Virus record (IMG/VR): IMGVR_UViG_3300021978_000001
Location: 96,001 to 160,000 of that record
Length of the DNA stretch: 64,000 bases
From: a virus
Taxonomy: Duplodnaviria; Caudoviricetes
Direction: 5' to 3' (one strand)
The notes beneath the pieces were generated by a model. It saw nothing but the letters and a program-made list of their open reading frames with translations, was not told the origin of the DNA and did no database searches. This document shows positions 23,994-55,040 of this stretch, one piece after another. The translations under genes and the position numbers were made by a program. Each line of letters starts with the position of its first letter. Position 1 is the stretch's first letter.

Positions 23994-24038
23994 CTCTTGA
24001 GACTGACACTAAGAATGAATGCGAACCCTGAAGGAAAG

Positions 24039-24110
24039 TGACCGTGGGGGGAATCGAACCCCCAACCATGGCTTTTAGAGAGCCTTGCTCTGCCGTTGAG
24101 CTACACGGTC
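24039..24110 (-). tRNA. amber suppressor tRNA (anticodon CTA)
   Basis: Full cloverleaf GACCGTG/CACGGTC, D-stem GCTC/GAGC, loop CTCTAAA, T-arm GGGGG-TTCGATT-CCCCC. Confidence 0.85.
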
Positions 24111-27308: not shown

Positions 27309-27374
27309 GGATAAAGCCTCCAGGAATTTCTGCCTGGCTTCGCCTTACACGCAGAGTGGCTACGTGTAAGGTAT

Positions 27375-27485
27375 AGGAGGTTGCACGGGATTGAACCGTG
27401 CTATCGCTCATGTCAGCCCGAAGGCACCACGCGCGAATTATCCGAGAACCATAAACCCGGCATTTCGACACGCCGTTTGGTCTCC
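27375..27485 (-). ncRNA. tRNA-like structured RNA of unknown class
   Basis: Ends in T-arm CACGG-TTCAATC-CCGTG then ACCTCC; several hairpins including GCC-TTCG-GGC; no standard cloverleaf. Confidence 0.4.
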
Positions 27486-27578: not shown

Positions 27579-27650
27579 TGGAGCTTGAGAGACTCGAACT
27601 CTCAATTCAACCTTGCAAAAGTCGTGTGATCCCAGTTTCACCAAAGCCCC
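27579..27650 (-). tRNA. tRNA-Ala(TGC)
   Basis: Cloverleaf, G3:U70. Confidence 0.9.
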
Positions 27651-27654
27651 AAAA

Positions 27655-27737
27655 GAAGTGAGGGTGGTCAAGGTGGTGCATATGGGGGTCCTTGTTTGCT
27701 ATAAGATAACCCATGTGCGGCATACCACCCCCACTTC
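27655..27737 (-). ncRNA. hairpin cassette copy 1, near-empty
   Basis: GGTATGCCGCACATGGGTTATC-about 15 nt-ACCCCCATATGCACCACCTTG within an outer stem. Confidence 0.6.
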
Positions 27738-27762
27738 TGACATCTTCCTGGGAAGAAGATAG

Positions 27763-27835
27763 TGGAGCCAGGGGGTCTCGAACCCCCGACCTCGACGCTG
27801 CCAGCGTCGCGCTCTCCCAACTGAGCTATGGCCCC
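27763..27835 (-). tRNA. tRNA-Ala(GGC)
   Basis: Canonical cloverleaf. Confidence 0.95.
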
Positions 27836-27855
27836 GTTCGTACTATGAACGCCCC

Positions 27856-28218
27856 TCAACCGAGGGTCATTTCCCCATCACAGAGTTCGTCGATCAGCGC
27901 ATCGAGTTCCAGGGGGACTTTGCCCTCATAGAACTCGATGCGCCTTTCCTGACCGACAGCATCTCTCCACACCACCTGGTATCTCATACCATCACAGATA
28001 GAGAAACCAGGTGGAATCGGAATCTTGGGGTCGATAGGTGGAGGAAGGGTGAGAGTTTCGAGGCCCTCACCCTGGTCCAATATACCTTCCAACCGTTCAA
28101 GCATCTGGAGAGATGCAGGAGAGAGGTTCGTCTTGAGCGAAGAAAAGGTCTGCTTCAAGAGAGGAAACAACCCGCCTTCGCGGATGTACTGCACTTGAAG
28201 ATGCTTGTCTTTGCTCAT
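27856..28218 (-). CDS. hypothetical protein
   Basis: ORF between RNA genes. Confidence 0.5.
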   Translation of the reverse strand: MSKDKHLQVQYIREGGLFPLLKQTFSSLKTNLSPASLQMLERLEGILDQGEGLETLTLPPPIDPKIPIPPGFSICDGMRYQVVWRDAVGQERRIEFYEGKVPLELDALIDELCDGEMTLG

Positions 28219-28240
28219 CAGTTGAACCTCGCTATGTAAA

Positions 28241-28379
28241 TCTGAGCCGAACAAGGTGTGGATCTGGGGGTTTAGCGTGCTACCATTACACTACCCTGGG
28301 GGTTAACCCAGGGCCGGGACTCGAACCCGGACCGCCTGATTTGCATTCAGATAACCCATCTCCGGCATCTCGGCTCAGA
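28241..28379 (-). tRNA. circularly permuted tRNA-Cys(GCA) (28275-28350) inside hairpin cassette
   Basis: Order: anticodon arm, T arm, CCCTGGG, TTAACC, CCCAGGG, D arm; U73; joining restores C27-G43. Confidence 0.8.
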
Positions 28380-28407
28380 ACTGTGCTCTCTCTTGTTACG
28401 AGAGAAG

Positions 28408-28736
28408 ATCAAAGGTGTGTCCACCAAGGCTGCACCCGAGTAAGGGTATATAGGTGGCATCGTTGTGTGGCCGCCGTCTACGCGCCAACTCGTGGCCTAT
28501 CGCCGTGGAGAAGGTTCGCGCACCGGGCTGGCGGGCGCCCTCATGATCGAGATTGCTCTCGACCTTAGCCTTGAGCCTTCGTGGGGAAGGGACTCTCAAG
28601 GGAGGGTGAGCTTGGCCTGACAGGTGTAACCTCGATAGGAGACTACCCCGTTTCGCTAGACCCCTCACGGGGATTCACTACCTTCGGACCGTTATTGGGA
28701 TAACCCACCTACGGCAGCTCAGGCACAGCTCTTGAT
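28408..28736 (-). ncRNA. hairpin cassette enclosing an about 249-nt structured RNA (28451-28699)
   Basis: GCTGCCGTAGGTGGGTTATC 5' arm, TATACCC 3' arm; GNRA hairpins inside. Confidence 0.6.
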
Positions 28737-28825
28737 GAACACACCTTTGGAGACCTCGGAGCTTCCGAGCGCGCACCACCCCGCTAAAGATAAAGCGGCT
28801 CGGTGCTCCGAGATCCCAAAGAAAA

Positions 28826-28891
28826 GTCACGGTCAAAGTGATGTATATGGAATATTCTATCTCCGATAATCCATACACGGCATACCGTAAC
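28826..28891 (-). ncRNA. hairpin cassette, near-empty copy
   Basis: GTTACGGT-ATGCCG-TGTATGGATTATC-short loop-TATTCCATATACA-TCACTTTG-ACCGTGAC. Confidence 0.55.
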
Positions 28892-28892
28892 A

Positions 28893-28973
28893 AGCGAGCG
28901 ACGGGACTCGAACCCGCATGCGTTAAAGCGACAGCTTGGAAGGCTGTTGTCCGACCAGTTGGACCTCACTCGC
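28893..28973 (-). tRNA. tRNA-Gly(TCC) with unusually long variable region
   Basis: ACAGC-CTTCCAA-GCTGT, U73, 13-nt variable region. Confidence 0.8.
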
Positions 28974-29172
28974 GCATACTCGTCTCTCCGAGCTGTCACC
29001 CGGTCTGTCCCAGGTTCGTCATGCGTCACACTCTCGGGCCGCATCGCCGCACGAGGGGATCTTCAGATCGCGTGACCCCTCGTGAATCACATGCGACCTC
29101 CGGCGTCTGGTCTCGCCGGGCCACGGGATTGTGCACGCGCATCTGCGCGGATGGAATCCTCGGGCGTCAGGT

Positions 29173-29315
29173 ATTGCGTGGTCAAACGGAGCGTAACAGG
29201 AGTGTTGACTCGTGCTCTGCCGGTTGAGCTAGAAGTGCCACTCGTCATGACACAACCCGGGACTCGAACCCGGAACCACAAGTTTGGATAACCCTATCAC
29301 TGCATACCACGCAAT
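29173..29315 (-). tRNA. degenerate circularly permuted tRNA (Gly/His-like) in hairpin cassette
   Basis: T arm precedes D arm; acceptor has 2 mismatches; anticodon loop would be non-standard. Confidence 0.55.
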
Positions 29316-29437
29316 CATGGTCCTTCTCCCTAAGATCTCCCTGAGAAGAAGGTTTGGGTTGGATGAACCTCTCACTGACACCTTGATCGACCGAAATTGA
29401 CGACAACGACAGACAAGAGGATGAGAGGTTCATCCAG

Positions 29438-29512
29438 CGACTCCTACGGGATTTGAACCCGTGGTCTCCTGCGTGACAGGCAGGCGTCCACTCCAGACTG
29501 GACCGAGGAGCC
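29438..29512 (-). tRNA. tRNA-Asp(GTC)
   Basis: Canonical cloverleaf, G73. Confidence 0.93.
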
Positions 29513-29589
29513 GAAAGTGCTCTATCCGAGCGCTTTTGTATGATACCATGGAAACCTTATCCTGGAAACCAAGGTAGCGTCAAGTACCA

Positions 29590-29661
29590 ATCCGGGAGCA
29601 GGGCTCGAACCTGCATTGCGAGGATCAAAACCTCGTGTCCTGCCAATTAGACGATCCCGGA
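29590..29661 (-). tRNA. tRNA-Gln(TTG)
   Basis: Canonical cloverleaf. Confidence 0.93.
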
Positions 29662-29720
29662 GTAATCGTGGCCCAAGCACTGCTTCGTGCAGTGAACATC
29701 CCGAGTGCTTGAGCCACGAT

Positions 29721-29924
29721 TCACGCATGTTCGGTGCCCGTGGCTTCCTCGATAAACGAGGAAATCACATGACGTTGAACCACCGCGTGGGGTGTCGCTT
29801 GTGACTGTGACCACACCTCGATAGTGCTCATCGAAACCTCGAAACGATCGGCAAGCTCTCTGCTGCTATGCAATTCTCGCAAGTAATGCAAGGCGAACAG
29901 GAAGAGTTTATGCGTCTCATTCAT
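29721..29924 (-). CDS. small HTH protein
   Basis: SSRELADRFEVSMSTIEVW helix-turn-helix pattern. Confidence 0.6.
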   Translation of the reverse strand: MNETHKLFLFALHYLRELHSSRELADRFEVSMSTIEVWSQSQATPHAVVQRHVISSFIEEATGTEHA

Positions 29925-30007
29925 CGAAACCTCGATCAGTGTCGTGTCGAGTGCAGGGTCCGAAGTCAGCGAACACCGCTTCTCCCTGCACGAGCAGGGA
30001 AGATAGA

Positions 30008-30152
30008 GTACACCGGATAAGGGATGAGAGTGGATGTTTTTGGCGCTTTACCACTAAGCTACACAGCCGTAAACGATGGCTGTGGGTTGGAATCGAACCA
30101 ACCGATCTCCCCGTTAAGAGCGGATAACCCACGGCTCTTCAGCCCGATGTAC
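30008..30152 (-). tRNA. circularly permuted tRNA-Lys(CTT) (30042-30123) inside hairpin cassette
   Basis: CCG-CTCTTAA-CGGGG, T arm, CACAGCC-A-TCGTTTAC-GGCTGTG, D arm, GCC; joining gives a perfect 5-bp anticodon stem. Confidence 0.85.
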
Positions 30153-30154
30153 AG

Positions 30155-30227
30155 TACCACAGGTGGGGGTCGAACCCACAACATCCTGGTTTTGAACCAA
30201 GCGCCTCTTCCATTGGGCCACTGTGGC
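30155..30227 (-). tRNA. tRNA-Leu(CAA), short variable loop
   Basis: CTTGG-TTCAAAA-CCAGG; 5-nt variable region. Confidence 0.75.
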
Positions 30228-30421
30228 AGGCGGAGTTGCATACGTCAAGGGTTTTCTGCTGGGCAGGATCGCCACCGTCGTGGATGGATCTGCCTGACCT
30301 TTACACCTATGCAACAACCCTGGAGTTCCCATCTCTCCGGTCTCTACGCGTCGTCACGCACCCTGTAGGAGCTACCCCACAAGATACAGCCTCGTGACGT
30401 GTGAGGCTACGCGCTGGGAAA

Positions 30422-30494
30422 TCGACATGCCAGGACTCGAACCTGGACCACCTCTTTCGTAGAGAGGCACTCTATCCAATTAAGTTACACGTCG
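30422..30494 (-). tRNA. tRNA-Arg(ACG)
   Basis: Canonical cloverleaf. Confidence 0.92.
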
Positions 30495-30609
30495 AGAATG
30501 CCTCCCAGTGTACGGTGTCGAGCACACCGAGAGGACTTTTCACTGTGGTCGTCGAGCGATCTCAGTGAGAGCGTTATGCCACACCTTACGAGAAGGTGTC
30601 AAGACAATT

Positions 30610-30825
30610 TCATTTTTTCTTGAGGTCAGCGTCGGTGAGGCTCTTTTTCTGCCAAGCCGCCTCTTCCTCTTTAGCGCATCGCTTGCTGTACCGCCACGCG
30701 ATGGCATGGTCAATACGATCAAGCTCCTCACGCTCCTCGACGGTCAAGGTGCCTTGTGCTTCGAGCGCACGTTGTTGAGCTTTGAGCCTTTCGATGTGTT
30801 TCCGATCTGCATCTTCATCAGTCAT
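30610..30825 (-). CDS. hypothetical protein
   Basis: GAGG RBS, helical composition. Confidence 0.5.
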   Translation of the reverse strand: MTDEDADRKHIERLKAQQRALEAQGTLTVEEREELDRIDHAIAWRYSKRCAKEEEAAWQKKSLTDADLKKK

Positions 30826-30944
30826 GCTTACCTCGTCTGAAAAGTACCCTGCCGTAAGTTCGCTTCTCATGCGCCCTCGTCTTAAAGGCGCACAGAATAC
30901 CCCTCCCCAGAGGTAAAGTTTAGAATGATGAACCCGACAGGGTA

Positions 30945-31017
30945 TAGCGGGTGAGGGAATCGAACCCCCAACTGTAGGTCATGAGCCTACCGAGATATAC
31001 CGTTTCTCCAACCCGCA
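30945..31017 (-). tRNA. tRNA-Met(CAT), 1:72 mismatch (initiator-like)
   Basis: GTAGG-CTCATGA-CCTAC. Confidence 0.88.
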
Positions 31018-31051
31018 ACAAATGAGTGTGCTGTTCCTGTGCCCCGGCGCC

Positions 31052-31195
31052 GGACCATCCCCGCATACGCGGGGAACACGCTCCACAACACACTCGGGCG
31101 CCTGGGTATACCCACGACGCAGATCCGCTTGACGGTGGAGCGACAGGCGGAAGTGGTACGGCAAGGCGAACCATCCCCGCGCACGCGGGGAACAT
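31052..31195 (-). CRISPR. two I-E-like repeats (31052-31079, 31168-31195) separated by 88 nt, between tRNA-Ile and tRNA-Met
   Basis: Near-identical to the array repeat. Confidence 0.85.
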
Positions 31196-31235
31196 GGACC
31201 TCACGGATGCATCGACGCGAGATCTCACCATACCA

Positions 31236-31309
31236 TAGCTGGACGCGGACTCGAACCGCGAACCTCAGCCTTATCAAGACTGCGCTCTAACCTGTTGAGC
31301 TATCCAGCT
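31236..31309 (-). tRNA. tRNA-Ile(GAT)
   Basis: Canonical cloverleaf. Confidence 0.93.
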
Positions 31310-31313
31310 TCAA

Positions 31314-31387
31314 GTGCTTGCCCCTGGACTCGCACCAGGATCTCTCGCGTGATGGCGAGCAGGTTACATACGGCTACCATGGATACC
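31314..31387 (-). pseudogene. degenerate tRNA-like sequence
   Basis: CCTGG-TGCGAGT-CCAGG T-arm, 6-nt anticodon loop, poor acceptor pairing. Confidence 0.45.
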
Positions 31388-31406
31388 TTGACCCCAGACA
31401 AGCAAG

Positions 31407-31555
31407 TGTACATGAATCGAACAAGGTAGTGAGCAAGGGGTTTTTACGAGTGCTACCGTTACACCACATGTCCGGGTGGACATGCTGGGACTCGAACCCA
31501 GACCACGCGCTCCGCTGGCGATAACCCTTATCTCGGTCATCTCGATTCATGTACA
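31407..31555 (-). tRNA. circularly permuted tRNA-Arg(GCG) (31447-31520) inside hairpin cassette
   Basis: CGC-CAGCGGA-GCGCG, T arm, CATGTCC-ACCC-GGACATG, D arm, TCG; joining gives a perfect CGCGC/GCGCG stem. Confidence 0.8.
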
Positions 31556-31556
31556 G

Positions 31557-31630
31557 TAGGGCTGACAGGAGTCGAACCTGCGACCATCTCCGTGTAAGGA
31601 AGCTGCTCTGACCAACTGAGCTACAGCCCT
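31557..31630 (-). tRNA. tRNA-Val(TAC)
   Basis: Canonical cloverleaf. Confidence 0.9.
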
Positions 31631-44750: not shown

Positions 44751-44823
44751 CCGGGGCGACAGGACTCGAACCTGCGACCTCTTGATTCGGAATCAAGTGC
44801 TCATCCAACTGAGCTACGCCCCG
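44751..44823 (-). tRNA. tRNA-Arg(CCG)
   Basis: Canonical cloverleaf. Confidence 0.93.
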
Positions 44824-44826
44824 AAG

Positions 44827-44900
44827 CGAGGGTGGCAGGACTCGAACCCGCACCGCCGTGGTTAGAAGCCACGCATCCTATCCGGTTGGACCACACCCTC
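44827..44900 (-). tRNA. tRNA-Arg(TCT)
   Basis: Canonical cloverleaf. Confidence 0.93.
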
Positions 44901-47271: not shown

Positions 47272-47330
47272 GCAGGAACCCTGTGCTATTGGACCTTGTA
47301 ATACTGGACCGTGTGATCTGTGATTTAGAG

Positions 47331-47404
47331 AGGTGAAGGTGGGAGTCGAACCCACAACAAACCAGGGTTGCAATCTGGCGCCCCGCCACCGGGACATCTT
47401 CACC
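47331..47404 (-). tRNA. tRNA-Cys(GCA)
   Basis: Loop TTGCAAC, U73; atypical D arm. Confidence 0.75.
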
Positions 47405-54965: not shown

Positions 54966-55040
54966 TGGGCTAGGTGGGAATCGAACCCACAACCTTCGGA
55001 TTAAGAATCCGCTGCTCTGACCTAATTGAGCTACCAGCCC
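54966..55040 (-). tRNA. tRNA-Lys(CTT)
   Basis: Canonical cloverleaf. Confidence 0.93.

Follow-up and report, generated by a model that had tools for sequence, protein, structure and literature searches.

Between genes for tRNA-Gln(ttg) (29590-29661) and tRNA-Leu(caa) (30154-30227) in a large marine phage lies a 145-nt interval, here called element C, in which the two halves of a tRNA can be recognized in reversed order. The locus raises the question of whether this interval is a circularly permuted tRNA gene, as a preliminary description had proposed for tRNA-Lys(CUU), or encodes another kind of RNA with a tRNA-like interior. The window analyzed, a stretch of 64,000 nucleotides, is taken from a virus record that is complete, has terminal repeats, and is 437,490 bp long; the window covers its positions 96001-160000. 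Element C occupies positions 126008-126152 of that record on the minus strand, amid 26 consecutive tRNA calls on the same strand, and no tRNA is reported at 30008-30152 by ARAGORN or by Rfam at its curated threshold. From sequence comparison we conclude that element C is probably the gene for a Y RNA of the YrlA class, one of seven placed amid the tRNA genes of this 437-kb phage. Its parts, in window coordinates, are the following.

30008..30152, minus strand: element C, a probable YrlA-type Y RNA gene, complete, 145 nt, with paired ends and a tRNA-like interior
30144..30152, minus strand: 5' strand of the closing helix, GUACAUCGG, forming 9 bp with 30008-30016 in both the MFE and the centroid fold
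30124..30130, minus strand: GGGUUAU box, the counterpart of the conserved YUAY of YrlA, directly 5' of the proposed cut
30111..30123, minus strand: anticodon-like hairpin CCG CUCUUAA CGG, in the place of the YrlA "V" stem-loop
30085..30103, minus strand: T arm GGUUGG UUCGAUU CCAACC, with a 6-bp stem
30062..30084, minus strand: acceptor stem of 7 bp, closed by the discriminator A plus UCGUUUAC
30044..30061, minus strand: U8 A9, the D arm GCUU AGUGGUA AAGC, and G26
30008..30016, minus strand: 3' strand of the closing helix, CCGGUGUAC, with CCCUUAU just before it (compare CUUG in the family)

Much of the earlier account of the interval holds. Every listed segment is found on the minus strand with the letters and layout reported, and the 3' tRNA half does precede the 5' half. 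When the 27-nt 5' half (30068-30042) and the 47-nt 3' half (30123-30077) are joined into a 74-nt construct, ARAGORN calls tRNA-Lys(ctt), and a 5-bp anticodon stem is completed by CC/GG across the junction: GG (30110-30109) pairs with CC (30043-30042), leaving a 7-nt loop with U33 and A37. The acceptor stem (GGCUGUG/CACAGCC) has 7 bp and a 9-nt closing loop, A plus UCGUUUAC. Further tRNA invariants are the UA, the GUUCGAUU T loop, and a D loop containing GG; G15 and C48 might also pair. ARAGORN's call on the joined halves requires that one additional nucleotide be placed between the T and acceptor stems. Put differently, the T stem (GGUUGG/CCAACC) is 6 bp long rather than 5, and the acceptor/T stack reaches 13 bp compared with the canonical 12. 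A normal tRNA-Lys(ctt) is indeed present at 54966-55040, with which the copy in element C would be redundant; a role as decoy or backup, as the earlier account suggested, is conceivable. The permuted topology thus stands, in that the order of the halves, the closed acceptor stem, and the anticodon arm split near 28/29 are all there; the idea of a gene whose product is cut and joined does not, given conserved, covarying flanks and the lack of a bulge-helix-bulge (BHB) motif.

The pairing of the interval's own two ends (GUACAUCGG with CCGGUGUAC) was left unused by the earlier model, and the homologue of this closing helix covaries across the viral family described below. Within element C, UUAU inside GGGUUAUC lies 5' of the hairpin and the T arm, where YrlA has its YUAY, and between the T and D arms stands a loop-closed stem resembling an acceptor stem, also as in YrlA. 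A possible additional pairing joins GUGGGU (30132-30127) to AUCCAC (30035-30030). The putative Ro site of element C is the most divergent among the seven cassettes (AUCGGGCUG plus CUUAU, compared with GNGC(C)GA plus CUUG in the family); a bulged C can be drawn in AUCGGGCUG/CUUAU, although the MFE fold is a different one, and the site is predicted to form a local hairpin, GGCU/AGCC, as an alternative. In YrlA, the stem made by the two ends carries a Ro-binding motif, GNCGAAN0-1G or a bulged helix. The fold z-score of element C is -2.46. A model with the full cloverleaf and the Y stem is predicted at -40 to -44 kcal/mol compared with an MFE of -50.1, that is, 6-10 kcal/mol above the MFE, so folding energy by itself does not favor the full cloverleaf.

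The layout recurs within the window. A brute-force scan of both strands also finds it at acceptor strands 28313/28300 and 31484/31473, along with one artifact at two neighboring tRNAs. Because it is repeated at 28242-28378 and 31411-31551 and in 49 well-formed elements of other viral contigs, the layout is not due to chance. Together with element C, six minus-strand neighbors make up a set of seven cassettes between 27.66 and 31.55 kb that have one common Y RNA scaffold and are interleaved with tRNA genes. The six neighbors are as follows.

27660-27732, minus strand: m1, a mini Y RNA without a tRNA body but with the same scaffold (RF01656, 28.9 bits)
28242-28378, minus strand: A, a sister tRNA-like Y RNA with loop AUGCAAA (full-length YrlA alignment, 32.3 bits)
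28615-28724, minus strand: X, with the same scaffold and a different module of ~80 nt
28827-28890, minus strand: m2, a mini Y RNA with box GGAUUAUC (RF01656, 34.2 bits, via UGGGUUAUC and CUUGACC)
29174-29314, minus strand: B, a sister Y RNA that has T and D arms; its acceptor stem is longer and irregular, and its hairpin has a 6-nt loop (YrlA, 25.3 bits)
31411-31551, minus strand: D, a sister tRNA-like Y RNA with loop CAGCGGA and no U33 (YrlA, 24.8 bits, model positions 1-114)

The scaffold consists of a closing helix, which carries a bulged nucleotide in family members, the GGGUUAUC box, and a variable module. In all seven cassettes, a 5' AUGC-type motif stands opposite a 3' C(A/C)CUUG-type motif, with a second helix in addition, and GG(G/A)UUAUC is followed by the variable module and then by a C-rich stretch. 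The sequence of the closing helix is different in every one of the seven, and its pairing is always kept. The conserved GGGUUAUC/AAAACAUCC region in the flanks of element C is common to the six neighbors, two of which (m1 and m2) are without any tRNA body. Over the whole 437-kb genome, GGGUUAU is found 24 times on the minus strand, compared with 26.7 expected. Six of these copies lie within 27.7-31.6 kb, each followed by C and four of the six then by a T loop; these six, plus one GGAUUAU copy, define the seven cassettes.

Several other features of this region deserve mention. Element X (28615-28724) has the closing helix GCCUGA/UCAGGC, CUGC, and GGGUUAUC, and its ~80-nt module is not tRNA-like. 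ARAGORN places a "tRNA-Cys(gca)" at 28306-28380 on the minus strand, overlapping the 5' part of element A, where the Rfam tRNA score is only 20.7 bits; this call is very likely a false one that the tRNA-like character of the Y RNA produces; a tRNA-Cys(gca) of normal form lies at 47330-47404. At 24038-24110 (minus strand), ARAGORN reports a Pyl tRNA with anticodon CUA, of the amber-suppressor type, with an Rfam tRNA score of 67.6 bits. Just downstream of the Y RNA/tRNA array, 27318-27403 (minus strand) matches RAGATH-36 weakly over the full length (29.4 bits, compared with a gathering score of 70). Among the flanking open reading frames, Pfam finds no informative domains, one frame ~4 kb away having only a generic AAA/NTPase domain, and a search by way of a flanking 235-aa frame found no relatives. 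A megablast search of the array against cultured phages gave no match. No RNA data sets covering 27600-31600 were found, and the metatranscriptome of the likely source sample contains next to none of the array's words.

Matches to Rfam models point in the direction of YrlA but need care. The scores listed above come from a permissive scan in which all cassette matches are below threshold (gathering scores, 69 for RF02553 and 38 for RF01656); in the same scan, element C reaches 23.6 bits with YrlA (RF02553), following A, B, and D. Sister A aligns to the whole YrlA model, including the AUGC and CUUG of the Ro-binding stem, and its anticodon-like hairpin is a 13-nt insertion relative to that model. 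Chen et al. 2014 (PMC4201824) described an artifact of YrlA searches at tandem tRNAs, and here the junction of two adjacent ordinary tRNAs at 44799-44852 scores 26 bits on the YrlA model. Because such a junction scores equally high, we rejected the weak YrlA hits as proof. At the gathering threshold, Rfam reports nothing but tRNAs, whether in the window or in the 15 family loci scanned. The threshold does not discriminate among phage members, however, since the YrlA of the mycobacteriophage Cali scores 36.1 bits and none of the 15 family loci pass, just as element C stays below 69.

To place element C among relatives, viral contigs were searched for GGGTTATC, a gap of 14-26 nt, and GGTTCGANTCC (box and T loop); the box is required by this collecting pattern. 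The search matched 105 viral stretches, many in contigs of 280-490 kb and several with more than one copy, among which there are 49 distinct well-formed elements having a T arm, a closed 7-bp acceptor stem, and a D arm. The flanks of 45 of these form 6 bp, a bulged nucleotide (C in 41), and two more pairs (G.U and then usually A-U), whereas with shuffled tails the same bulged-helix geometry arose in 2.9 cases on average and 7 at most. The geometry is that of the vertebrate Ro site, GGUC(C)GA/UUGACC. Independently of our parser, RNAalifold applied to a MAFFT alignment of 45 sequences gave back all four helices (closing helix, T arm, acceptor stem, and D arm); of their 24 pairs, 22 show compensatory changes. 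A looser scaffold scan was noisy, with 264 hits compared with 68 in reversed controls.

The hairpin before the T arm resembles part of an anticodon arm in most of this family. Together with 0 to 4 trans pairs, it makes exactly 5 bp and a 7-nt loop in 32 of the 49 elements; in 200 shuffles, such a split arm was found in a mean of 2.6 and a maximum of 7. U33 is present in 29 of these 32 arms and a purine (R37) in 31, neither being demanded by the parser. The "anticodons" are diverse, with 22 different triplets, and differ among members with the same backbone. Four elements (L020, L021, L042, and L105) have nearly identical backbones (acceptor ACCCCGC/GCGGGGT, D arm GUCUAGUGGUUAGGAC) and the triplets GUC, AUC, AUC, and UCU. 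The triplet apparently can change, with U33 and R37 retained. CCA follows directly after the discriminator in the acceptor loops of 13 of the 49 elements, with 0.8 expected by chance. In mini Y RNAs, the looser scan showed that the hairpin following the box does not look like an anticodon arm (35 hits compared with a shuffle mean of 20, and no preference for U33). A split anticodon-like arm as a family-wide property goes beyond the descriptions of YrlA cited here.

The phage also encodes the expected protein partner of a Y RNA. A 583-aa open reading frame on the plus strand (record positions 295160-296911) contains TROVE (E = 2.8e-41) and vWA_Ro60 (E = 3.4e-60) domains, and it is the one TROVE protein in the genome. 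This Ro60 gene is ~169 kb from element C and on the opposite strand, outside the limits within which Chen et al. 2014 reported YrlAs (no more than 4 kb from Ro60 and on the same strand; PMC4201824). The association is visible at the level of genomes: TROVE was found in 28 of 35 viral records with scaffold elements, compared with 1 of 20 control records that match the DNA pattern without the scaffold, and in 15 of the 16 scaffold records that are at least 90% complete. A 360-kb phage (G001) has a Ro60 that is 47% identical to the one described here; it was rejected as a carrier of the scaffold, its YrlA-like hits all being tandem tRNA pairs with no scaffold. A query of cellular genomes with a single protein found nothing. 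With an alignment as the query, we retrieved loci from bacterial metagenome-assembled genomes (MAGs) that have relatives of Ro60 and, on the Ro60 strand, RNAs of the same class (Armatimonadota, Chloroflexota, and Myxococcota). Some loci from Myxococcota and other MAGs (L137, L138, L145, L154, and L159) contain tandem tRNA-like genes less than ~4 kb from Ro60 on the same strand, and the runs at these loci have identical acceptor stems (GCCGCCG ... CGGCGGC) and different anticodon loops.

The closest described relatives are the YrlA RNAs (RF02553), for which the YUAY, the V stem-loop, processing by RNase P and CCA addition, and occurrence in phages have been reported (PMC4201824). Element C resembles them in its 5'/3' stem with the putative Ro-binding region, YUAY, and hairpin before the T arm and, further inward, in the T arm, the acceptor-like stem closed by a loop, the UA and D arm, and the tertiary signatures of tRNA. 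The 7-bp acceptor stem is matched in the YrlA of Mycobacterium smegmatis, and, like other genomes with YrlA, this one includes a Ro60 gene. YrlAs in the group of mycobacteriophages to which Cali belongs (the Bxz1 group) were reported by Chen et al. 2014 (PMC4201824). In Cali, the best YrlA hit (36 bits) is ~190 nt upstream of the Ro-like gene and is built like element C. Its box is the variant GGUUAC, and the hairpin that follows has 3 bp and the loop AUUGCAA, with two further trans pairs. Next come a T arm, an acceptor stem closed by a loop, and a D arm, and the closing helix has a bulged C. The anticodon-like arm is split into 3 + 2 bp, exactly as in element C. A mini Y RNA follows the Cali YrlA. 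Element C differs from YrlA in its location ~169 kb from Ro60 on the other strand as one of seven copies among tRNA genes, in its score below the Rfam gathering score (as is true of Cali), and in the diverged sequence of its Ro site. In published YrlA descriptions the hairpin is called a variable arm, or "V" stem-loop (PMC4201824), and the YrlA of Salmonella Typhimurium is said to lack an anticodon loop.

Other systems resemble element C in part. Metazoan Y RNAs and nematode sbRNAs (RF01656) have a bulged Ro-binding helix of the GGUC(C)GA/UUGACC type and the UGGGUUAUC motif, and m1 and m2, 64-73 nt in length, are similar to the sbRNAs and to vertebrate Y RNAs in UGGGUUAUC and CUUGACC and match this family at 29 to 34 bits, below its gathering score of 38; these RNAs differ in being eukaryotic and in having no tRNA-like module. 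In the Thermus phage phiLo, the phage Ro60 binds phage Y RNAs and host PNPase (PMC12135203). By description, its Yrl1 and Yrl2 are similar to the present case, being Y RNA-like RNAs of a phage that has Ro60, with a proposed recruitment of host PNPase (PMC12135203). They differ in lying directly upstream of Ro60, and a tRNA-like module does not figure in the sections of that report cited here (PMC12135203). The cultured Sinorhizobium phage Phosso (469 kb) has mini Y RNAs among its tRNAs, ~130 kb from the Ro gene. In the Phosso record, these RNAs lie at ~420430-420760, the Ro-like gene lies at 290.3 kb, and one of the RNAs has a 4-bp hairpin with the loop CUCUUAA, which is the loop of element C.

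Element C is strongly conserved where its DNA is found again. Four independent metagenome contigs have one substitution in its 145 nt, at 30074 in the acceptor loop, compared with eight in the adjacent 158 nt (Fisher's P = 0.038). DNA nearly identical to the array is present in runs X1 to X17, from hydrothermal-vent, seawater, marine, and aquatic metagenomes of seven studies. One of these runs is labeled rhizosphere; because its size and share are identical to those of a seawater run, it may be the same data filed twice.

These observations bear on what else element C might be. A genuine permuted tRNA gene, whose transcript would lose its leader and trailer, be circularized by ligation at 28/29, and then be opened in the acceptor loop by RNase P and a 3' nuclease to give a decoding tRNA-Lys(CUU), would explain why ARAGORN calls the joined halves tRNA-Lys(ctt), why the 7-bp acceptor stem, A73, U33, A37, G18G19, and T loop are all tRNA-like, and why a genomic CCA follows the discriminator in 13 of the 49 family members. 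Its ligated junction would read ...AAGCGCC|CCGCUCUUAA..., and no joints across 28/29 were present in the DNA contigs. The known permuted tRNA genes, 34 in six algae and one archaeon (PMC3978253), are similar to element C in that the 3' half comes first, the acceptor stem is closed by a short sequence between the halves, and a cloverleaf results from joining the parts, as in Cyanidioschyzon merolae, green algae, and Thermofilum pendens. However, theirs have BHB termini and are processed by a splicing endonuclease and a ligase through a circular intermediate to aminoacylated tRNAs, whereas the termini of element C form a conserved helix that is a putative protein-binding site. There is no BHB in element C: allowing a shift of up to 2 nt to either side of the proposed cuts, the best candidate for a 4-bp central helix reaches 3 pairs of the 4, and the Y stem makes the junction a three-way one. 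Those enzymes have no counterpart in the phage genome, which gave no match to PF01974 (splicing endonuclease), PF01139 (RtcB), or PF09414 (Rnl2 ligase); it also gave no match to the CCA-adding enzyme PF01743. Such genes are, moreover, known only from algae and one archaeon (PMC3978253). The flanks that would have to be discarded are conserved, covary, track Ro60, and are shared with the known YrlA of Cali, all of which this explanation leaves unaccounted for. Furthermore, the position of the junction varies with 0 to 4 trans pairs, the "anticodon" differs among members with the same backbone, the acceptor/T geometry is 7/6 and not 7/5, and the product would duplicate the tRNA-Lys(CUU) at 54966-55040. 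We therefore regard a permuted tRNA gene as extremely unlikely.

An RNA that is tRNA-shaped but independent of Ro60, acting as a decoy for host nucleases or modification enzymes that target tRNAs or as RNase P/Z punctuation in a tRNA polycistron, would fit the position of element C among 26 same-strand tRNA genes, the retention of U33 and R37 across a family with 22 different triplets, and the lack of a separate promoter or terminator that stands out, a scan for both having found nothing above shuffles. We nonetheless consider it unlikely, because the bulged closing helix, the scaffold held in common with the mini Y RNAs, and the strong co-occurrence with Ro60 are left unexplained; a decoy role could coexist with Ro60 binding. 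A relic without function, left by the tandem duplication of a tRNA, or an artifact of two adjacent tRNAs is a very unlikely explanation for element C: although tandem tRNAs do yield YrlA-like hits (at 44799-44852 and in all the hits of G001) and a dimeric-tRNA origin has been proposed for YrlA, the acceptor strands of element C form 7 bp with no mismatch, a second T arm and a first D arm are both missing, the element is far more conserved than the spacer beside it, and the architecture is maintained with covariation across many phages and bacteria. The assignment to the Y RNAs draws on the scaffold of the seven cassettes, the covariation of the family, the co-occurrence with Ro60, the anatomy of the Cali YrlA, the bacterial loci, and sequence conservation.

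Architecture, family membership, covariation, and the linkage to Ro60 were observed directly; how such a Y RNA might work can be suggested by analogy. By comparison with YrlA and Y RNA work in Deinococcus, Salmonella, M. smegmatis, and phiLo, the closing helix would be the docking site for the phage Ro60, the protein with the TROVE and vWA_Ro60 domains. The L-shaped tRNA mimic may serve as an effector-binding module that tethers Ro60 to a tRNA-binding or RNA decay factor such as host PNPase; Y RNA is reported to link Ro60 to PNPase in Deinococcus, in Salmonella, and, in the account of phiLo cited above, in that Thermus phage (PMC4201824, PMC12135203). The YrlA of M. smegmatis is cut by RNase P, after which both halves stay bound to Ro60 and the 5' half gains CCA (PMC4201824). 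In element C, host RNase P may likewise open the loop that closes the acceptor stem, cutting 5' of G1, because that stem has 7 bp. The product would be a two-piece RNA with a 3' end capable of receiving CCA, whose ends would not be joined.

The permuted order most likely goes back to two tRNAs in tandem. In the published model, YrlA arose from dimeric tRNA transcripts, and our family data fit and sharpen this model, with tRNAs permuted by tandem duplication and a complete anticodon arm kept; it is the anticodon-arm mimic (5 bp, a 7-nt loop, U33, and R37) together with the frequent genomic CCA that supports an origin from tandem tRNAs. A more far-reaching idea, which we consider doubtful, is that the "variable arm" of the YrlA class is in general an anticodon arm that has been preserved, in which case the RNAs of this class would be whole tRNAs in circularly permuted form, held on Ro60 through a stem inserted in the 5' strand of the anticodon stem, and, once RNase P had opened the loop that often encodes CCA, two-piece mimics ending in CCA. 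In large phages, they might act as baits or sensors tethered to Ro60 for tRNA-directed enzymes, such as host anticodon nucleases, modification enzymes, and synthetases.

The YrlA-type class of Y RNAs, with its mimicry of tRNA, is known from phages and bacteria that encode Ro60, and element C adds a member to it. Moderately new are the presence of Y RNA arrays in the tRNA islands of huge phages, the blindness of the Rfam YrlA threshold to this phage group, and the anticodon-arm mimic with frequent CCA in the acceptor loop. The assignment removes a tempting false positive, since a bacterial virus with a permuted tRNA gene would have been without precedent. The calling of a Y RNA as tRNA-Cys by ARAGORN means that tRNA counts in such phages can be inflated. 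In huge phages of marine and other habitats, arrays of up to ~seven Y RNAs are located inside tRNA islands, far from Ro60, and are missed by searches confined to the Ro60 neighborhood or to the Rfam threshold.
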